In this document: positions 1,845 to 33,929 of the stretch, piece by piece
How positions within the stretch are numbered: the first letter of the stretch is position 1
How the letters are laid out: every line of letters begins with the position of its first letter
NCBI GenBank assembly: GCA_951406725.2
Contig: OX597823.1
Coordinates: forward strand, 78,678,001 to 78,742,000
Direction: 5' to 3'
From: Octopus vulgaris
Lineage: Eukaryota
Length of the DNA: 64,000 nt
The notes under the pieces: generated by a model
Told to the model about the DNA's origin: nothing
Seen by the model: only the letters and a program-made list of their open reading frames with translations
Database searches by the model: none
Position numbers and translations under genes: made by a program

Positions 1845-3496
1845 TATTATTATTATTATTCAGATCACTGCCTGGAATCGAACTCAGAATCTTGGGCTTA
1901 GTAACCCGCACTCTTAACCACTACGCCATATGCCCATGGGCATATGGTGTAGTGGTTAAGAGCACGGGCAACTAACCCCAAGATTCCGAGTTCGATTCCA
2001 GGCAGCGATCTGAATAATAATAATGATGATGATGATGTGAATGACAACAACATTGAAAAATACCTTAGGAATGAGAACCCAGGTCCGAAATTTCCCCAAG
2101 ACACCTGATGAGTGTTGGAGGGTATAACAGCCAAAACATAGTGTTACGAGGGGCGTTCAATAAGTAATGCCCCTGACCCACTTCCCATAGCAGTAGAGCA
2201 ACGACACTTGGCACAGTTATTAGTCTTTTCCTACATAGGAACTACCCAGAGTTATGCATTTCTACCATCGTTTGATACAGCTCTGGAGACCGTTTTTGTA
2301 GAAGACTCCAGCTTGGTCCTCCAACCACGACGTGACTTCAGAAATCAAAGCTGCATCATCTGGGAAACGCTTTCCTTTCAAAATCAACTTCATGGCTGGG
2401 AAGAGGTGAAAATCAGAGGGTGCAAGGGTAGGAGTTCATAGCTGCACGCCTGTGCTTCTGATCTGGCGACACGCGAGTTGTGGACTGGAGCATTGTCCTG
2501 CAGGAGGAGGATGCCTTTGCTGATCTTGCCCCACCTCTTGATTTTGATAGCTTCTCTTAATTTCCTCAAAAGTGAAGCATAATAGGCTCCTGTAACTGTG
2601 GTACCCTTTGCCAGGAAATCTGTCATCACTACTCCGTCCTGGTCCCAGAAGACTGTGAGCATAACCTTGTCAGTGGAGGGCTGCACCCTTGCCTTCTTTG
2701 GAGGAGGTGAGTCACGGTGCTTTCACTGCATTGACTGGGCTTTGGTCTATGGATCATAGTGATGGACCCAGGTTTTATCCTGTGTGATCAGTCTTTTGAA
2801 AAATTTTGACTCATCTTCTTGGCACATCTCCAAATTCATCCTCGAGCACTCAACGCGTTCTTGCTTCTGGAAAGGTGTGAGCAACCTGGAAATCCATCTA
2901 GCAGACACCTTTTGCATATGCAAATGGTCATGAATGATAGTTTCCACAGACCCGGTACTAATCTTGACCTTATGGGCTATTTGGCGAATAGTTATGCGTT
3001 GACCTTCCAAAATGGCAGCCTCAACTTGATGGACAGACGTCTCATCAATGGCAGAAGGGGACGACCAGATCTGGGAGCTGTTTCCACAGAGTTCCGACTA
3101 TGTTTGAATTCACAATGCCAGCGTTTTACAAGGTCATATGATGGGGCATCATCACCATAAGTTACTTTCATTTCATCAAAAGTCTCCCGTGGTGTGCGTC
3201 CTTTCAAATACAAAAACCAGATCACTGCTCGACACTCAACAGGCTCCATTTCACACTTGACTCAGTTCAAACACCTGTAAATCAGAAACCACAATTAGTT
3301 CAGAGCTGTAATTCGTCACTTAATCTATAGAGGTATAAATAAGTGCACATGCAAAATTTCAGCTAGATCACACAACTGCAAGTGGGTCAGGGGCATTACT
3401 TATTGAACGCCCCTCGTAACAACAGAGGACAAATATCCATCAATTGTAAATAATGTGAATAATGTACATAATTCCTCTTGTCTTAAATATAGAACT

Positions 3497-3499
<3 letters not shown>
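1845..3499 (+). mobile_element. Non-autonomous tRNA-headed, hammerhead-bearing element with inverted head duplication; interrupted by a mariner
   Basis: Palindrome 1861-1936/1937-2012 of a tRNA-like head (A box TGGTGTAGTGG 1945-1955, B box GAGTTCGATTCC 1988-1999), then (TAA)n, body, degenerate hammerhead 2100-2145, and a tail resuming at 3417 ending AAATATAGAACTGTA, the same end as the copy at 23826. Confidence 0.75.
2147..3416 (-). mobile_element. Mariner (DD34D) transposon, full length, transposase pseudogenised
   Basis: 37-bp TIRs CGAGGGGCGTTCAATAAGTAATGCCCCTGACCCACTT at 2147-2183 and 3380-3416, TA TSD; frameshifted ORFs with WISRLL, ITQDKTW, LLQDNAPVH; YSPDLAP region deleted. Confidence 0.95.
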
Positions 3500-3548
<49 letters not shown>

Positions 3549-4380
3549 CATCATTATTATTATTATTATGATGATGATGATGAAGTGTTCACATGGTGGA
3601 TTAACAGGAAAAACATCAGCAGAGAGGGAATTACAGAGGGATATACTCTGGGTAAAAAAAGACTGGGTACAGCTGCACAACAGTGAGTGATGGGTTTGGT
3701 GTGTGTGGACACAATATGGAGAGATGAGTGAACTGGAAATGCCTTAGTGGAAATGATACAAGATGAACCAGACCTGATGAGCAGTAGTTTGCATAGTTAC
3801 AGTGGGAAAGAGAGAGAGAGAGAGAAAGAGAGCAGGGAATTTTAGGATTTGGTAAAGTAGCGACTAACTCTTGGATGCACTATTTGAGGGATATTGTCAG
3901 TAACCTTGTTGGTGTCAAGTAACTGGAATGCACTTGAGGGCACATGTGATTCTGGTGCAGTGGAAAGGGATATTTGTGAAGAAGTCTTACCAATTGCATG
4001 CACTCTGGAGTTGGATACAAACCAGGCAATGAATTTGGCGGCATTATTTGTACAAGTAAAAGGCAGCCAACTGGCAGAATTGTTAGCATGCTGGGCAGGA
4101 TGCTTAGTGGCATTTCGTCTGTCCTTATATTCTGAGTTCAAATTTTGTCGAAGTTGACTTTGTCTTTCCCCCTTTCAGGGAGGGTCAATAAAATAAATCC
4201 CAGTTATGCACTGGGGTCAATGTAATTGACGACCCCTGCCCTCCAAAATTTTAGGCTTTGTGCCTACAGTAGAAAGAATTATTTGTGCAAATACTACTTC
4301 AACAACCATCTTAATTGAGATGTAGAGAAAGGGAGAATTCTGTAAATTTGAGAGAAATCTTTCTCTAAAAGGATCAAAAG

Positions 4381-5061
4381 GATCATCATTATCATCCTAG
4401 TCAGGTGTCGTACTATGCGATGCTGTGGTCATCACAATGTCCTGCCACCTTCTCCTGTCCTTTACGCCATGGACTGCTGAGGATAAAGACAATCCTGTGG
4501 CTGCGATGTCTTTCAGCCAGGAAGTGGGTAGTCTGCCTCTTTCGCATCTGCTGTTCACCTTGCCAATTATGATCGTTTGCTCAAGTCCATCCCGGTGCAT
4601 GATGTGGCCAAAGAACCGTAGCTTCCACTTCATGATGTCTCGCCGAAGTGTCATCTCACAACCAAGATTTTCTAGTACCCAATTCTGCGGTAACACCACA
4701 TTTCAGAAGCGCTCACTCTTTTCTCATCTGCCTTCAACATTGTCCACAACTCGCAGCCGTACGTCACAATAGAGAAAGCGGTAGCCCGAAGTAGCCTTAT
4801 CTTCAGCAGCACTGACATGCCACAACTCTTCCAGATGTTCTCCACATCTTGTACCACTTGCCTCACTATTGCAAGTCTTCTCTGTAGTTCTGGTGTACTT
4901 GATCCACTGGTGCTGATTGTGGATCCCAAGTACACAAAATTATCCACTTCCTGAATCATCTCTCCATCTACGGTGAAGTCACCTTGGTCTGTCCTGTACT
5001 TATCCACCACCAAGATCTTTGTCTTCTTTACATTCAGGAATAGGTCACTTTGTGCACTCAA
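4381..5061 (-). mobile_element. RTE-clade LINE 3' fragment (RT C-terminus)
   Basis: LFLNVKKTKIL, VDNFVYLGS, IVTYGCELW, EMWCYRRI, KLRFFGHIM, GR...SWLKDI; GAT-rich tail at ~4381-4396. Confidence 0.9.
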
Positions 5062-5934
5062 TCAAAAGGATAGACAACTATCCTTTTTATTGAGTTCTCT
5101 CATCTCCCAAAAACTATTGCCTATCAAAAGGATAGGGAATAGTTTTTGGGAGGTGAGAGAACTCAATAGTTGTGGGTATGCAAAGGCATCACTTAAATTG
5201 CAAATAGTGGCCTTGCTGGTATTTTGATAGTGGCTAAGAGCTAGTTTGTGAGAGTAGGTGATTCTCTCCATCTTTCATAGGCTATGTTTTTGCCTGAATT
5301 ACTTTCATGCACTCCATAGACTTTTGATATGAATTTTGGTTATGTGCAATATGTGGAAGGACGCTCCTTAGAAAGACGATGGGTTTAACTCCTTCCACCA
5401 GCTGTGTCTGATGTGTCAAAGGTGAAGTGTATGTTCTATCAGTGACAGTTAGATTAGAATTGGCAAAGCTCCACCAACTTACCTAATCTGAAGTGCAATA
5501 GTGTCCAAAATCTCTGGAACAGCCTTGCATAAGTTGTATGGTGGGTAGTTTCAATAAGGCAGTTGTTGTAGGACTCTCTATATGAGTAGAGACAATGATG
5601 GTCTGGTAAAGTTTGGGGTTGGAGGTGAGAAAGTGATGGAAAGTATTTGACTGTATCACTCGGAGATGCTTGTAGGAAGTTGTGGATTGATGACAGAGAT
5701 TTAGGGCAGTCGGGCAGGCACACGTGAGCTCGGAGCGTGGCTACCTGGACGCGTGGCTTGTCCACGAAAGTCGGAGGTCCCGCAATTGTACGTAGTTAGA
5801 GCCTCACCTCGCCCATGGTGGACGGATGTTAATGTGTGGGCAAATGTGTGTTAATGTGTAGCCATACTGTTCCAGCATGGACAGTATGGGATGAATGTGA
5901 AAACTGTGTGTCATGAAATGAAACAGATGTATTG

Positions 5935-6055: not shown

Positions 6056-6232
6056 GAGAAGAAGAAGAAAAAGGAGAGGAAGAGGAATATGGAGAAGAAG
6101 AAGAAAAAGGAGAGGAAGAAGGAGAAAAAGAAGAAAAAGGAGAAGAAGAAGGTGAAAAAGAAGAAGGAGGAGAAGAAGAAGAAGAAGAAGAAGAAGAAGA
6201 AGAAGAAGAAGAAGAAGAAGAAGATGAAGAAG
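5935..6232. repeat. (GAA/GGA)n low-complexity tract
   Basis: Direct inspection; source of the spurious poly-E/poly-K/poly-S ORFs. Confidence 0.95.
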
Positions 6233-6399
6233 ATACAGTCAATGTATTGGTAGTTGCTGGAGTTAAGAGTGTGAGAGAAGGAGGGGGAAGAGGAGGAGAG
6301 GATGAGGGCAAGATGATGATGATGATGATGACTGTTATATTTGCTTTTGCTTTTATCTTGGTTGGATTGCATTGTATAAAATGCGGAAATTTGAACCGT

Positions 6400-7660
6400 A
6401 CGGGACTCCTTCCTCTAAAATGAAATGGAGAAGACCTAAATAACTGGAAAAGCGAGAAGACCAAATCGGAAAAAGAAATAAGGGAGATGATTCTGTTCGG
6501 TTTCTTGATTAGGTTCATCAGACTTATTTCCCTTTAAAAATTCGCTATGTTCTGCATTGTCAAAAATCAGATCAATAAAGATTTCATACATTCACTATTC
6601 TTCGGCAAAAGTGAGAACCAGCGTGTGTGCCTCAACGTAGTCATTCGACTTGCTAGAAATAGCTACCAAATCTTCTCCAAAACACCGCTTTTTTAAAAAA
6701 GAAATGGTTTGCCCACTAAAATTAAGAGTCGGCTGTGGCTGATATCAACATGGAAAATTATTTGAAAAAACATTCTAGTGAAAATTTGAAATAATTCGAC
6801 CAATTGGATGAATTTTAAAAAGATCCCGGTACTTTTTGACTGCGGCCATGCTGGAGCACCGCCTTTAGTCGAGCAAATCGACCTCAGGACTTATTCTTTG
6901 TAAGCCTAGTACTTATTCTATGGGTCTCTTTTTGCCGAACCGCTAAGTTACGGGGACGTAAACATACCAGCATCGGTTGTCAAGCAATGCTATGGGGACA
7001 AACACACTCACACAAACATACACACGCATATATATATATACGTAAACATACCAGCATCGGTTGTCAAGCGATGTTGCGGGGGGGGGGGGGGATAAACATA
7101 GATACACACACACACATATATATGACGAGCTTCTTTCAGTTTCCGTTTGCCAAATCCACTCTACTAGGCTTTGGTCGGCCCGAGGCTATAGTAGAAGAAA
7201 TTTGCCCAAGGTGCCACGCAGAGAGACTGAACCCGGAATTATGTGGTTGGTAAGCAAGCTATTTACCACATAGCCACTCCTGCGCCTAATAACATTTTTA
7301 TAACAAATCATACCATGCCTATTGAGGAGGCTAAACGTCAATAATGTGTTGAAGTATTGAATCTCTTGTCGCCACAAACCCAATTTTTTAATGGGGGTGA
7401 GGTAACCAAAATGTACCAAGATCCCGACTAACGCCTTCCCCTAAAATTGCAGGCCTTCTACTTAAATTAGAAACAATAATTTTACTGCTTTCAGCCATAG
7501 TGATGCATCGCATTTAAAGGTTTTGTCAATTATATCAACCTTACTACGTATTTCAGTACTTGTTTTATCGGTCTCTACGTGTCGAATCGCTAACTTCTTT
7601 GCATAAATAACCACACTATAAGGAACTTTGGCGTACACATAAAATGTGTCGACGATCTTC
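6400..7660 (-). pseudogene. Decayed nAChR-like (Cys-loop) receptor copy, interrupted by a SINE
   Basis: In order on minus strand: AIRHVETDKT..VDIIDKTFKCDASLWL (cf. VRPV..N..IIDVDEKNQ...WL), LWRQEIQYFN (cf. IWRPDIVLYN), RHGMICY, VPGSFKI, NFPC*YQ (cf. FPFDxQ), LIKKPNRIISLISFSDLVFSL (pre-M1/M1). Confidence 0.6.
6836..7286 (-). mobile_element. tRNA-derived SINE family A
   Basis: Head AGGCGCAGGAGTGGCT(G/A)TGTGGTAA, internal (TA)/(TG) tract, body ending CTCCAGCATGGCCGCAGTCAA; more than 12 copies in the window. Confidence 0.9.
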
Positions 7661-8367
7661 CATCTATGCATGCATTCATTCATTCATTCATTTCCATTTG
7701 CCGAATTCTACTCATAAAGCATTTGTTAACACAAGACTTTATAATGAGAGGCAAGGTTCATGATATAGGATAAATATCACCTTCTCCTATTAAAATTGTT
7801 CGTTGTGTTGTTTCAGGCTCCAGTAGGCGAGGAAAGAAGTCTTAAGTAAAAATGCAATTCACAACCAGTTTATTTAGAAGTTACACAGAATAGATGAAGT
7901 GTGTTTCTCTCAGTATACCAACTCAGGCTGTGTACGTTTCGTTGTATCTCCGTTAAAGCGACGTACGACATGCAGACAGGACTAGTCTGGAGACCCAGCC
8001 AGCGAAGTATGTTCAGCAAAGCGCTTGCGGTGAAGAAGATAGAATCTGTTTTGTTGGGCCCTTATATACAGTTTGCCATCGCGAGCCTCGTTGTGATCTC
8101 GCGCATGGCAAATGGATGCAGGTGAGGTCTCGCTCCAGTCTCTGAGATGGCAGTGGCTGCCGCGAGATCTCATCCAATATGGTACTGACTGCTTGTGCCG
8201 CTACAACTTGAGGTAAGTTGCACAAAGTGCTGTGCAGTGGGAACCACGCGGTTGCAAAGCGAATATATTTACAATACAGCCATGTATGTCTAACATTAAA
8301 AAAAAAAAAACGATACTGCGATACAGATCAAACTATCATTTATCTTTTAATTGTTTCAGTTATTTGT

Positions 8368-8930
8368 AAGGCGGCGAGCTGGCAGAAACGCTTGCACGCC
8401 TTTCGGGGTCGATAAATTAAGTACCAGTTGCACACTGGAGTCGATGTAATCGACTTAATCCCTTTGTCCCCTCTATGTTTAGCCCCTTGTGGGCAATAAA
8501 CAAATAAGAAACGTTAACACGCCGGGCAAAATTCTTAGCTGTATTTCGACTTCTGAGTTCAAATTCTGCAGAGGTCGACTTTGCCTTTTATCCTTTCGGG
8601 GTTGATTAAATAAGTACCAGTTACGCACTGTGGTCGATATAATCGACTTAATCCGTTTGTCTGTCCTTGTCTCTCCTCTCTGTGTTTAGCCCCTTGTGGG
8701 TAGTAAAGAAATAGGTATTACGTCTGCCGTTATAAGGCGGCGAGCTGGTAGAAGTGTTAGCACGCCGGACGAAATGCTTAGCGCTATTTCGTCTGTCTTT
8801 ATGTTCAGAGTTCAAATTCCGCCGAGGTCGACTTTGCCTTTCATCCTTTTGGGGTCGATAAATTAAGTACCAGTTGCGTACTGGGGTCGATGTAATCAAC
8901 TGGCTCCCTTCCCCAAAATTTCGAGCCTGA
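8368..8930 (+). mobile_element. SINE family C, head-to-tail multimer
   Basis: AAGGCGGCGAGCTGGCAGAAACG head; repeated GGTCGACTTTGCCTTTCATCCTTTCGGGGTCGATAAATTAAGTACCAG core. Confidence 0.85.
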
Positions 8931-23168: not shown

Positions 23169-23211
23169 ACAACTTTTCGGTTGAAATACCCTCCAGCATT
23201 CATCAGGTGTC
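23169..23211 (-). ncRNA. Minimal type-I hammerhead motif (truncated 3' stem I strand)
   Basis: GACAC-CTGATGA-A-TGCTG..CAACC-GAAA-AG-TT-GT. Confidence 0.6.
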
Positions 23212-23278
23212 TTGGGGAAATTTCGAACTTAGGTCCTCATTCCTAAGGTATTTTTCAATGTTGTTGTTGTTGTTGTTG

Positions 23279-23349
<71 letters not shown>

Positions 23350-23393
23350 TGTTTAGGTCGCGCCATATGACCTAGACTAAACTCGGCATGTGA

Positions 23394-23445
<52 letters not shown>

Positions 23446-23535
23446 CATAATACGTAATAATAATAATAATAATATAATGGTTAAAAGCGCGGGCTACTAA
23501 CCCCAAGATTCCGAGTAATTGATTCCAGACTGTGA

Positions 23536-23598
<63 letters not shown>

Positions 23599-23714
23599 CA
23601 ACAACATCGAAAAATACCTTAGGAATGATAATAATAATAATAATGATGATGATGATGATAATAATTAATTGAAAATATCTTAAGAATGAGAACTCAGGTT
23701 TGAAATTTCCCCAA

Positions 23715-23760
23715 GACACCTGAAGAAGGCTGGAGAGTATATCAGCCGAAATGTTGTGTT
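23715..23760 (+). ncRNA. Minimal type-I hammerhead ribozyme
   Basis: Stem I GACAC/GTGTT, core CTGAAGA, stem II GGCTG/CAGCC, GAAA, TG, TT cleavage site. Confidence 0.8.
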
Positions 23761-23979
23761 AACAACAAACAAGATGAGGACGTAAATAATTTACATATTT
23801 CCTTATCTCTTAAATATAGAACTGTATTCATCAGGGCTTCCTCGAATTCTTCTTTTGAGATTATAAGGAAATCTGTTCCGTCGTCTGGAAAACAGGGGTT
23901 TGTTACTTTCCTCCTAGCCCTTCACTAAGTAATTCTTCGGTGAGACATACTTTATCTTTTTTCTTTTAGCTTTTATCGT

Positions 23980-28634: not shown

Positions 28635-28691
<57 letters not shown>

Positions 28692-28702
28692 GTATGTATA
28701 TA

Positions 28703-28738
<36 letters not shown>

Positions 28739-28833
28739 TGTATGTATATATATATATATATGTATATATATGTATATATATGTATATACGTACATATAAT
28801 TACATACATACATGCATGCATATATATATATAT

Positions 28834-28873
<40 letters not shown>

Positions 28874-28965
28874 AGTAAGGAAAAATGTTTTTAAAAATGC
28901 AGAATGCTCAAATGAAAGAAAATTTTAATAAAATGAGAAAATGATAAAATATATAAATATATATT

Positions 28966-29004
28966 TATTCAACGTTTTCGTCATTGTATGACTTGTCAAG
29001 AATA
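28966..29004 (-). ncRNA. Type-I hammerhead with U3-A8 core (left arm)
   Basis: TATTC-TTGACAA-GTCAT ACA ATGAC-GAAA-ACGTT-GAATA. Confidence 0.75.
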
Positions 29005-29634
29005 TTTATGTTTTAAGAAGTTTTTTTAAAAGTTAGAAAGGGGAAAAAAGAAAATTGCATTGTTTTTTGTAAAAGAATAATGATAAAAATGTACAAAAAT
29101 TAAAAATAAGTTCTCCGATACATTGTGAGTTCGTTGTGTATCTTGAGTTTTATGGTTGTTTACCAAAAAATTACCTTGAGGTGTTAAGATCCAAAGGGAT
29201 TAAGAGCATGTGATGTGTTGTGTTGTTAAATTCAGCATGTTGCAGGACAGGAAGTAGTAGTAATTGTGGTCCTGGTTCTTCAGTTCCTGTGTTGTGAGTA
29301 AGGGGAGACAACTCTTTTGAGTTCTTCAATAAAACCCAAATTATAAAACTATCATTTTAGCTTCATTTGCATTATCTTTTTTATATAATTGCTTGTTAAC
29401 TTAACTTTCAGATTTTAACACTTTATTTATATTATTTTCTAATAATATAAATCTGCATAGACAATTGCATTTCAAATTGTCATATCATTTATAATAAAAA
29501 TGATAGTAATAACAACAATAGTGAAAATGATATTTAAAGAATATAAGTTTTGGCTTGAAGTGATGAATGCATGGTATCTTTATATATTTGTGTTAGTCCA
29601 TCCATGAAGAGTGAGGTAGAGAAAGGAAGTTTGA

Positions 29635-31049
29635 TCAACGAGGAGTTTGCATATTAAGTTGTGTTTGGAATTTTTCAATAAAGAGATTCTCCTTGTTAAT
29701 TCTCTCCTGTGTGGTGATCCTGTCTTTACATTGGTAGAAGGGGAATATATAGAATTTGGGGTTTAAGTCTTTAGCACATGAGTCTAAGTGGTCACTCAGT
29801 GGAATTTGTCGGTATTCCGGGAGATTTATTTGTTCTTTATGCACCGTTACTCGTTTACGTAACGGGAGACTCGTTTGTCCCACATAATTATGTTGGCAAC
29901 CAGCGCATGTGAGATCGAAGATAAGGTTCTCGGAGGAACAGGAGAAGTTAGTCTTGATTTTAAACTTCGTACCTTGTTTGAAGGTAAATTCAGAGCCTTC
30001 AAGTAGAAAGGGGCAGGTACCACAGTTTGAGCGTGCACATTTTTTTACTGTTGGGGGTGGATGTGGTGTGTGAAGTTTGGCATTTGTCAAGAGTTTTTTT
30101 AAAGATTTGTGTTGCCTTTTGCATTTGAGGATTTTGTGTGTATTTATAATGTTTTTCATTTTTGGGTCTGTTGACAGTAGACTGAGGTTTTGTATGATTG
30201 TGGTGTATGCTTCGATATTTTTGGGGTTGTGGGTGGAAATGTATGGAAGTATTTTGAAGTTGTGTGTGGTGTTAGGTTGGGTGGTTATCAGTGTAGTGTT
30301 GTCTAGTTCTTTGGCGCGTTTTATTCCATACTCTATAAGGGTGGAGGGATATTGACGTTGTAATAGTGTTTTTTTGAGGTCTTGAAGGCGTATTTCTCGT
30401 GTTTTTGGATCCGAGACAATGGTGCATACTTTTTAGCTAAATTGAAAGGGATATTTGTCTTGGTGTGTTTTGGGTGGCATGAACTAAAGAGGAGGTATTG
30501 TTGTGAGTCTGTAGGTTTGTGGTAGATGTCTGTTATGATTTGGTTCTTAGGTGTTTTTATAATTAGGAGATCAAGGAATGGGAGATGATGTTTGCTTAAT
30601 TCCATAGTGAATTGGATGTTGGGATGTATGTTGTTTAGTATGGTTTTGAATTCCAGGAGTTTTTCATAAGTTCTTTCCATATGATGAAACAATCATCTAA
30701 ATACCTTTTCCAGTTTTCCATTAGGTAGGTGTGGAAAACATGTCCAAATTTCTGGCTTGATATTTCATAGAGTGACAGTTCGAAGTAACCCATTATGAGG
30801 TTCGCAAGGACTGGTGCAGCCTTGTACCCATCGCAATGCCACATTTTTGACGGTAGTGTGTGTCGTCGAAGAGAAAAAAATTGTTTGTCAGAATGAACTT
30901 AAGAGATTCTGTAATAAAAGACTTGTTAATGCGGTCAGGGAATGTCTCTGGGTGTTTTTCTAGCCAGAAGTCAATTGCCTCTATACCATACTCATGTGGA
31001 ATGTTGGTGTAGAGGTTGATGACATCAAAGGATACCAGGAGTGCCTCCT
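29635..31049 (-). pseudogene. Inverted, frameshifted duplicate of the Penelope ORF
   Basis: Same protein split across ORFs 30793-31203, 30635-30844, 30333-30692 and 29635-30159 by 1-nt indels. Confidence 0.9.
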
Positions 31050-32587
31050 GTGAAACACACCGCCTGAGTAACTTCCTAGACATCCTTTTGAAACCTTTCC
31101 TTACCCACATCAAAAGTTTCATTAGGGATGATCTGGACATGCTCAAACACCTCCCGAAAACAGTTAACGAGGAGGCACTCCTGGTATCCTTTGATGTCAT
31201 CAACCTCTACACCAACATTCCACATGAGTATGGTATAGAGGCAATTGACTTCTGGCTAGAAAAACACCCAGAGACATTCCCTGACCGCATTAACAAGTCT
31301 TTTATTACAGAATCTCTTAAGTTCATTCTGACAAACAATTTTTTTCTCTTCGACGACACACACTACCGTCAAAAATGTGGCATTGCGATGGGTACCAAAG
31401 CTGCACCAGTCCTTGCGAACCTCATAATGGGTTACTTCGAACTGTCACTCTATGAAATATCAAGCCAGAAATTTGGACATGTTTTCCACACCTACCTAAT
31501 GGAAAACTGGAAAAGGTATTTAGATGATTGTTTCATCATATGGAAAGAACCTTATGAAAAACTCCTGGAATTCAAAACCATACTAAACAACATACATCCC
31601 AACATCCAATTCACTATGGAATTAAGCAAACATCATCTCCCATTCCTTGATCTCCTAATTATAAAAACACCTAAGAACCAAATCATAACAGACATCTACC
31701 ACAAACCTACAGACTCACAACAATACCTCCTCTTTAGTTCATGCCACCCAAAACACACCAAGACAAATATCCCTTTCAATTTAGCTAAAAGAGTATGCAC
31801 CATTGTCTCGGATCCAAAAACACGAGAAATACGCCTTCAAGACCTCAAAAAAACACTATTACAACGTCAATATCCCTCCACCCTTATAGAGTATGGAATA
31901 AAACGCGCCAAAGAACTAGACAACACTACACTGATAACCACCCAACCTAACACCACACACAACCTCAAAATACTTCCATACATTTCCACCCACAACCCCA
32001 AAAATATCGAAGCATACACCACAATCATACAAAACCTCAGTCTACTGTCAACAGACCCAAAAATGAAAAACATTATAAATACACACAAAATCCTCAAATG
32101 CAAAAGGCAACACAAATCTTTAAAAAAACTCTTGACAAATGCCAAACTTCACACACCACATCCACCCCCAACAGTAAAAAAATGTGCACGCTCAAACTGT
32201 GGTACCTGCCCCTTTCTACTTGAAGGCTCTGAATTTACCTTCAAACAAGGTACGAAGTTTAAAATCAAGACTAACTTCTCCTGTTCCTCCGAGAACCTTA
32301 TCTACGTTCTCACATGCGCTGGTTGCCAACATAATTATGTGGGACAAACGAGTCTCCCGTTACGTAAACGAGTAACGGTGCATAAAGAACAAATAAATCT
32401 CCCGGAATACCGACAAATTCCACTGAGTGACCACTTAGACTCATGTGCTAAAGACTTAAACCCCAAATTCTATATATTCCCCTTCTACCAATGTAAAGAC
32501 GGGATCACCACACAGGAGAGAATTAACAAGGAGAATCTCTTTATTGAAAAATTCCAAACACAACTTAATATGCAAACTCCTCGTTGA
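31050..32587 (+). CDS. Penelope-like RT + GIY-YIG endonuclease ORF (N-terminally truncated)
   Basis: SFDVINLYTNIP, GIAMGTKAAP, RYLDD, LPFLD, DIYHKPT; linker CARSNCGTC; NLIYVLTC..C..NYVGQT..LRKR..H. Confidence 0.92.
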
Positions 32588-33218
32588 TCAAACTTCCTTT
32601 CTCTACCTCACTCTTCATGGATGGACTAACACAAATATATAAAGATACCATGCATTCATCACTTCAAGCCAAAACTTATATTCTTTAAATATCATTTTCA
32701 CTATTGTTGTTATTACTATCATTTTTATTATAAATGATATGACAATTTGAAATGCAATTGTCTATGCAGATTTATATTATTAGAAAATAATATAAATAAA
32801 GTGTTAAAATCTGAAAGTTAAGTTAACAAGCAATTATATAAAAAAGATAATGCAAATGAAGCTAAAATGATAGTTTTATAATTTGGGTTTTATTGAAGAA
32901 CTCAAAAGAGTTGTCTCCCTTACTCACAACACAGGAACTGAAGAACCAGGACCACAATTACTACTACTTCCTGTCCTGCAACATGCTGAATTTAACAACA
33001 CAACACATCACATGCTCTTAATCCCTTTGGATCTTAACACCTCAAGGTAATTTTTTGGTAAACAACCATAAAACTCAAGATACACAACGAACTCACAATG
33101 TATCGGAGAACTTATTTTTTAATTTTTGTACATTTTTATCATTATTCTTTTACAAAAAACAATGCAATTTTCTTTTTTTCCCCTTTCTAACTTTTAAAAA
33201 AACTTCTTAAAACATAAA

Positions 33219-33259
33219 TATTCTTGACAAGTCATACAATGACGAAAACCGGTTGAATA
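33219..33259 (+). ncRNA. Type-I hammerhead with U3-A8 core (right arm)
   Basis: TATTC-TTGACAA-GTCAT ACA ATGAC-GAAA-ACCGGTT-GAATA. Confidence 0.78.
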
Positions 33260-33503
33260 AATATATATTTATATATTTTATCATTTTCTCATTTTATTAA
33301 AATTTTCTTTCATTTGAGCATTCTGCATTTTTAAAAAACATTTTTCCTTACTTATCATTTCTCCACGTGCGGTCAACACAACCCCACCATTTATTGATCT
33401 ATATATATATATATATATATGTATGTATATATATATGTATATATGTATCTATGTATATATATATATATATATATAAGTATGTGTGTATGTATATATATAT
33501 ATG

Positions 33504-33553
<50 letters not shown>

Positions 33554-33562
33554 CACACACAC

Positions 33563-33593
<31 letters not shown>

Positions 33594-33929
33594 CATACAT
33601 GTACACTCACACAAACCCACAAAGAACACAACAAGTATATGGCGCCTTCATAGAAGAACGTATTCTAAAATAACATGTAATCCACGTTATTAGCTGTTAA
33701 GCAGATTATTTACTCAGTTCATATATCAACGGATATTCCGATCTAATGCTTTGCTTGAAATTAATCGTATCAAAGCGTAAACTGTATATTCAAAAACATA
33801 GCGAACTCGGGGCACTCCTTCGATCATATTATCATAAAATGTATCCACATATATTCATAGACAGACAGACATACGAATCTATAAACGCAAACACGCAAGC
33901 CCGTACCTACAAAGGATCCATGCATGAGC

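Follow-up and report, generated by a model that had tools for sequence, protein, structure and literature searches.

The locus at positions 1845-3499 of the analysed stretch of Octopus vulgaris DNA (64,000 nucleotides of contig OX597823.1, hereafter the window) raises the question of which kind of mobile element places two tRNA-like sequences back to back and continues one of them into a tail with a hammerhead motif. The initial annotation proposed a separate, non-autonomous hybrid of a SINE and a retrozyme. According to the comparisons presented here, the repeat is almost certainly the pLTR of an autonomous Penelope element of the Poseidon type, present in the window as a decayed, back-to-back copy.

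The centre of the window copy is an inverted repeat with a spacer of 0 (1843-1936 and 1937-2030), whose 94-nt arms are 89% complementary, in agreement with the spacer-less palindrome originally described. The left arm, on the minus strand, comprises a (TTA)n tract at 1843-1860, which is the terminus of the inverted arm, and an inverted tRNA-like head at 1861-1935 (A box 1918-1928, B box 1875-1883). The right head, on the plus strand at 1938-2012 (A box 1945-1955, B box 1990-1998), is the 5' end of the pLTR and a predicted type 2 Pol III promoter. Both 75-nt heads are 93% identical to the family consensus and carry A and B boxes pointing outward at tRNA spacing, so the annotated pair of outward tRNA-like heads with (TAA)n stands. 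An (AAT/GAT/AAC)n microsatellite (2013-2051, plus strand) separates the right head from the tail, the 5' part of which (2052-2146, plus strand) contains the ATG (2071) that starts an 838-aa frame in the family consensus. It also holds the remnant of a minimal type I hammerhead (2100-2145, plus strand) that is intact in the consensus and was rightly called decayed here: G12 is lost, and stem II and the cleavage triplet are altered. The 3' part of the tail (3419-3497, plus strand) reaches the distal family end (position 184) and corresponds to sequence coding for the ORF N-terminus in full-length copies. Unlike most two-armed copies, the left arm has no tail part. Given that both flanks are (TTA)n, with the right one grading into (TGA)n (3498-3583, no strand assigned), the target-site duplication of this copy is not resolvable.

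Two features of the window copy are later modifications. The right arm had been described as continuing into a body, and the tail with its hammerhead is indeed present, but the pLTR body is not continuous, since 2147-3416 (minus strand) is an unrelated, nested mariner DNA transposon. It has 37-nt TIRs, a broken transposase (PF01359, E 5e-20, and PF17906, E 1.5e-8; Mos1-type HTH and DDE domain) and a TA duplication at 2145-2146 and 3417-3418, and it accounts for 1,270 of the feature's 1,655 bases. Likewise, the axis CCCA|TGGG (1936-1937) is present as annotated, but its perfect symmetry is found in the window copy only. The native axis is a 2-nt asymmetric loop, which would be that of the hairpin at the ORF-pLTR junction, and the loss of one CpG probably made it symmetric here; a perfectly symmetric ancestral axis was considered and rejected. 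Searches of the window with Rfam (gathering and E-value modes) and ARAGORN returned neither a tRNA nor a hammerhead, and ARAGORN drew no cloverleaf.

A first look across the genome (2.8 Gb) gave 4,597 candidate copies. Eighty evenly spaced 10-kb stretches (800 kb) contained 14 loci, which corresponds to about 49,000 genome-wide (95% interval 27,000-82,000). Both counts greatly exceed chance expectation. The family consensus was built from 135 head matches and 173 tail matches, and copies diverge from it by about 4% outside CpG, which indicates that the family is not young. The 3' end had been called fixed. Its position in the window (3497) is a preferred one, exact in 69 of the 173 tail matches and within 2 nt in 83, but the family has two preferred 3' ends, at tail position 184 and at positions 141-161. 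Substitutions are less frequent in the B box and the hammerhead core, at 2.7% against 3.9-4.3%, but these rates are uncorrected for base composition and were not counted as evidence.

Linkage of head and tail in sense was found at 24 of the 29 loci selected by the head and at 21 of the 29 selected by the tail, which bears out the linkage expected of other copies. The unbiased sample of 16 clusters comprises nine with head and tail, six with tail only and one with head only. Loci with an interrupted link often have another repeat inside the (TAA)n tract. As a separate observation, repeats that appear LINE-like by eye lie in or beside the pLTR (TAA)n at six loci (L028, L040, L054, L032, L033 and L057) and split head from tail.

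The identity of the parent element emerges from sequence upstream of several single heads, which is common to them and encodes a GIY-YIG C-terminus. The head lies directly 3' of the ORF at 28 of 30 loci picked by the ORF 3' end, a set in which the query locus and one duplicated pair are counted; the remaining two carry the tail. When the endonuclease of a foreign, distant Poseidon was used as query, 30 loci were obtained, all of the same family, with the head behind the ORF in 26. At the opposite end, the tail is directly upstream of the ORF at 18 of 30 loci selected by the N-terminus, five of which show the order head-tail-ORF. The unit therefore reads ORF stop, 29-nt UTR, tRNA-like head, (TAA)n, hammerhead and ORF start. 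An autonomous Penelope sharing the tail, as had been envisaged for the repeat, was thus found. Its consensus ORF has 838 aa, one terminal stop and a coverage of at least 22, with the ATG in the tail, upstream of the hammerhead. It encodes RT and GIY-YIG, with 29-31% identity to Neptune ORFs matching PF00078 and PF01541 and 38-53% to a distant PLE. That the ORF-head junctions are assembly chimeras is unlikely, given that they recur at more than 50 loci and in two junction types.

No CX2-5CxxC Zn-finger linker was found in the consensus, while one is present in the Neptune element L202. On this linker test and on motifs, we take the clade to be Poseidon. Such a linker is a criterion of Neptune and Nematis (PMC8557442, cited, like the other papers below, from its accessible parts). 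Neptune, to which most of the GIY-YIG Pfam matches belong, was also considered as the partner and rejected: the tail was found in none of 30 such loci and in none of 20 wider 10-kb stretches, beyond one 21-nt match (E 0.2). The Octopus sinensis protein LOC118763458 has 82% identity to the family consensus, and in other assemblies a sister Poseidon family (P0001-P0053), at about 64% amino-acid identity, spans about 57-77%. A metagenome scan yielded five distant loci and a viral scan none.

Among described elements, Poseidon_Ac of the green anole (Frangieh et al. 2024, PMC11167929) shares with the octopus family an RT with C-terminal GIY-YIG, a pLTR that overlaps the ORF start and a hammerhead at that start. 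It also has two RT start sites that produce an optional tail of 30-40 bp, and RNA reads with ends at its cleavage site are likewise reported to be lacking. In the octopus family, by contrast, the ATG precedes the hammerhead core and the pLTR opens with the tRNA-like head and (TAA)n, a tRNA-derived promoter not being described for Poseidon_Ac in the accessible part of that source.

The head was compared with 27 distinct tRNAs of six isotypes from the same genome, an incomplete sample by which the donor is not fixed. The best match is tRNA-Arg, with 49 of 75 positions identical and a score of 61.5, against 21 +/- 6 for shuffles. The A and B boxes are intact in the consensus, and the 5' end of the head is also a boundary of copies. 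Among 56 arms reaching it, in sets not chosen for palindromes, only 7 extend upstream (about 9 of 58 when two short extensions are counted); for comparison, a 30-nt step within the ORF is passed by 26 of 29 ORF copies.

A third property is the absence of runs of four T (T4) from the sense strand. The 2,517-nt CDS contains none, against 3.0-4.3 expected (P = 0.010 by base shuffle, 0.030 by codon order, 0.028 by synonymous shuffle and 0.021 with Neptune codon usage), and the 2,660-nt unit contains none either (P = 0.007). A shorter, incomplete build of the consensus gave weaker P values, of 0.02-0.08. Neptune ORFs, by comparison, contain 29 T4 in a pooled 8,298 nt and at least one in seven of seven, and T4 or longer occurs within 70 nt downstream at 26 of 30 tRNA loci of the genome. 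The T4 result is only moderately significant; G4 is absent as well (P = 0.04 by base shuffle and 0.27-0.29 by codon-aware shuffles). Together, the intact boxes, the copy boundary and the absent T4 indirectly suggest a working Pol III promoter, possibly one that serves transcription of the whole element. From these sequence features, we lean slightly towards the head being the element's Pol III promoter.

A further-reaching version of this proposal is tentative and, in our view, rather doubtful. It holds that an autonomous Penelope captured a tRNA gene, which replaced its Pol II promoter, that Pol III would start in the 5' pLTR and read the whole 2.7-kb unit, cleared of T4 terminators, that the same start would yield tens of thousands of SINE-like fold-back stubs, and that the RT mRNA may be uncapped. 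A difficulty for a Pol III reading is the translation of uncapped RNA.

It is also possible, if unlikely, that the head is a passenger of the Poseidon pLTR: an old SINE or tRNA fragment with its (TAA)n, residing in the 3' UTR, with Pol II transcribing from a TATA-like box or by read-through and with a hairpin setting the boundary. A (TAA)n behind a tRNA head resembles the tail of a SINE, and such a tract follows the head here. The TATA-like box, 30-36 nt before the head, lies over the stop codon and suits both Pol II and Pol III. UTR and head also form an imperfect hairpin of -13.4 kcal/mol, the loop of which is the palindrome axis. The pLTRs of Adineta vaga Penelopes (Arkhipova et al. 2013, PMC3846280) have palindromes and putative TATA/Inr motifs. 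Given this junction hairpin and the tRNA-less pLTR palindromes elsewhere, the boundary may not be a start site. Two full-length-type copies (L316 and L340) run past the 5' head into the upstream ORF end, which indicates that some templates began further upstream. A distant Poseidon (L343) has no A or B box between stop and hammerhead, so the tRNA-like head is not general to the clade. A passenger, however, would leave unexplained both the absence of T4 over 2.66 kb and the intact boxes of the consensus, and it would make the agreement between the pLTR boundary and the tRNA 5' end a coincidence. Moreover, no free head family was found among the sampled loci, the head being without tail at only 3 of the 29 head-selected loci and in the single unbiased cluster mentioned above.

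RNA reads were drawn from three RNA-seq runs of one study, selected by species label. Each run placed 6,183-8,543 reads on the monomer, with equal depth in both mate orientations, and about 78% of the reads continue into unlike flanks. No pile-up of discrete read starts or ends, the cleavage end included, was found on the monomer in the three runs, and the lack of discrete starts is in keeping with a passenger head. The ORF-head-tail copy, for which two of the three runs were used, gave the same picture. With regard to circular RNA, a mark of retrozymes, short read joints that go back lie at the 3' end or in the microsatellite, away from the cleavage site. The overall read pattern shows no direct sign of Pol III transcripts and looks like read-through in host transcripts, and since strandedness and selection of the libraries are not stated, it says little on Pol III. 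ORF, head and tail are also covered by contigs from two further runs that bear the labels of different organisms, with no single piece spanning all three. At a few sites, read differences of the A>G and T>C kind reach 11-26% (reads on L052:1380-1730) and may reflect hairpin editing or variants of few highly expressed loci. A-to-I editing was dropped as a candidate, given that single expressed loci contribute up to about one fifth of the depth, that the most expressed flank was not found in the genome assembly, and that there is no same-animal DNA.

Whatever transcribes it, the short repeat might have been a lineage of its own, that is, a non-autonomous Pol III SINE or retrozyme that replicates itself and borrows Penelope proteins, much as the initial annotation had it. 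This is improbable. Solo copies do greatly outnumber ORF-bearing ones, with UTR or ORF sequence at 3 of the 14 unbiased loci; every solo arm has the head and hammerhead and lacks T4; and the mean divergence of solo copies is slightly lower (3.6% against 4.6% for ORF-linked copies). The whole unit, however, head included, is present in the autonomous element, and no substitution marks the solo copies. Three subfamily variants occur at similar frequencies in both solo and ORF-linked copies (p = 0.06, 0.09 and 0.86), and differences between the two classes at p < 0.01 are confined to the repetitive tail at 141-154; since the variants are common to both classes, nothing points to a SINE lineage apart from the autonomous element. 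Furthermore, the anole Poseidon template needs ORF sequence past the RT start sites (PMC11167929), which solo copies do not have.

The retrozyme part of the annotation is not sustained either. The hammerhead itself is as complete in the consensus as had been supposed, with CUGANGA and GAAA core, NUH, stems I and II and a palindromic stem III. Its distinguishing marks are an extra base before stem II, a G10.1-C11.1 pair and a stem III of two palindromic bases. Of 146 copies, 72 keep an intact core, with the palindromic CG in 28. Copies, on the other hand, are not tandem arrays, and they end 50-93 nt downstream of the predicted cleavage site, which implies that templates were uncleaved or religated. 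Cleavage is predicted to be weak, occurring only as a dimer or with the help of a protein, and the hammerhead is likely not what sets the copy ends.

The ribozyme does not differ from the minimal type I hammerheads that metazoan PLEs carry (Cervera and de la Pena 2014, PMC4209133), as far as these are described in the accessible part of that paper. They have the same extra base between 9 and 10.1, the same G10.1-C11.1 pair and a palindromic 15.2-16.2, and they occur mostly solo, with opposite-strand pairs 100-700 bp apart. Animal non-LTR retrozymes (PMC7229834, bioRxiv 10.64898/2026.07.22.740005) resemble the family in their type I hammerhead, PLE pLTR ancestry and short non-coding copies, but they form head-to-tail tandems (PMC7229834), whereas the octopus copies are dispersed and head-to-head. 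The 2026 preprint, which links retrozymes to pLTRs, makes no mention of tRNA, Pol III or promoter in its accessible part (bioRxiv 10.64898/2026.07.22.740005).

The insertion footprint was examined at 63 loci with a tail on both arms. Exactly one arm extends to the distal end at 57 of them, both at one and neither at five, and the short arm is mostly 25-40 nt shorter than the long arm. A flanking direct repeat of at least 8 nt is present at 36 of 53 two-tailed loci, against 2.2% of mismatched pairs. Given that one target duplication surrounds both arms, the whole palindrome is a single insertion. The one-sided extension and the target duplications also support the annotated mobilisation by Penelope RT/GIY-YIG rather than by a LINE. 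Arms point outward at 72 of 73 two-orientation loci, and same-strand tandem tails are rare (L282, L311). Regarding the origin of the two arms, the hammerhead N7 variant is the same on both at all 51 loci compared, 44 with one variant and 7 with the other (p = 9e-9), and non-CpG variants are common to both arms at 4.6 times the between-locus rate (0 of 2,000 permutations as high), while most CpG sites are discordant between arms. Both arms therefore derive from one source and later conversion is unlikely; the concordance also argues against a dimer of two RNAs from different loci. Palindromes formed by later recombination or gene conversion between separate insertions are thus very improbable: axis junctions do vary, with small deletions at many loci, but the single target duplication refutes such an origin for most loci, and the one-sided extension and the agreement of the arms in subfamily variants, mostly not extending to CpG decay, speak against it as well.

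Taking these results together, we consider it moderately probable that the family is a Poseidon pLTR with a tRNA-derived Pol III start, whose copies arise by fold-back or by a second priming. The element protein would nick AT-rich DNA and begin reverse transcription inside the ORF start. In vitro, anole Poseidon shows AT-rich nicking and two RT start sites in the ORF start, with hammerhead cleavage being dispensable, and the two 3' ends of the octopus family parallel these two internal start sites (PMC11167929). If the template RNA started a few bases before the head, cDNA from the distal site would run off after about 280 nt. The 3' end of this cDNA would be self-complementary, with about -2.7 kcal/mol when it lies at -7 or beyond, and could then fold back on itself at the junction hairpin; alternatively, a second priming on the same RNA could take place. 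The inverted arm would terminate at the proximal RT start site, which would leave it 25-40 nt short, and the ORF would be copied by rarer initiation events one unit downstream. At 31 loci not selected for palindromes, the arm extending further 5' is the short one in 12 cases and the long one in 10. For the former, simple fold-back would require a later central deletion, and double priming would also be possible.

The footprint of inverted arm, tail and target duplication is known for PLEs (PMC8557442, PMC3846280). The Adineta vaga Penelopes have an inverted pLTR, a one-sided tail and a palindrome at the pLTR 5' end; their target duplications of 8-10 bp are like those found here, and self-priming has been proposed for them (PMC3846280). 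They differ in having a putative TATA/Inr (Pol II) promoter and a low copy number, and A and B boxes are not described in the accessible part of that paper (PMC3846280). Hence the insertion footprint is of an already known Penelope kind, and what is unusual is the putative promoter of tRNA type at the 5' boundary of the pLTR.

Pol III promoters within repeats of other kinds offer partial parallels. The Sm-alpha and Sj-alpha repeats of Schistosoma (PMC6765202) likewise combine a Pol III-type promoter and a hammerhead in one short repeat. They are, however, non-coding tandem repeats with a canonical hammerhead, and in the cleaved monomer the promoter is located 3'; the accessible part of that source does not describe them as the terminus of a coding PLE. 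The TRIMp3 elements Cassandra, Helenus and Ajax (Kojima 2024, PMC10886601) have a small-RNA-derived Pol III promoter in the terminal repeat, possibly acquired via SINE insertion. These LTR elements are non-autonomous and at most 1.3 kb long, whereas the octopus promoter would sit in the pLTR of a PLE that is autonomous and 2.7 kb long. In the literature searched, no PLE was found whose pLTR has a Pol III promoter derived from a tRNA; the head may already be recorded in Repbase or Dfam, in supplements, or among the OK, OR1 and OR2 SINEs of Ohshima and Okada 1994.

Usually, autonomous elements use Pol II and SINEs use Pol III (PMC10886601). If the promoter is functional, the octopus family would be a coding retrotransposon under Pol III, contrary to this split, and would offer a visible route to the birth of a PLE-dependent SINE; if the Pol III reading is true, the family would be a SINE and its own LINE-equivalent in one. 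Aside from the promoter, the approximately 49,000 loci, with a fixed axis, arm markers and target duplications, are a natural data set on the formation of PLE inverted arms, and the family puts many long hairpins into host transcripts.

Minor observations concern other elements. Several unrelated candidate motifs resembling minimal hammerheads occur in the unbiased sample (L064, L071, L089, L102, L110, L113 and L139). At 4032-4454 of L202, and also near L180 and L201, there is a short palindromic element of another kind, one arm of which has a hammerhead. The Neptune family (L201, L202 and many other loci) is young, with intact 781-aa frames and many identical scores, and is possibly still active. 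Elsewhere in the window, 23169-23824 holds a second two-armed copy of the Poseidon pLTR family, with expanded microsatellites and a rearranged centre. A 38-nt inverted repeat, 95% complementary and with a 5-nt loop, lies at 5088-5168, and the minus strand at about 4390-5000 presumably carries a fragment resembling the reverse transcriptase region of a LINE. Finally, 28637-33600 is a 5-kb head-to-head palindrome of a Neptune-type PLE, whose arms are 95% identical, with ORF fragments on both strands, one arm longer than the other and a degenerate hammerhead in the 3' UTR, which is the same footprint in an unrelated clade.
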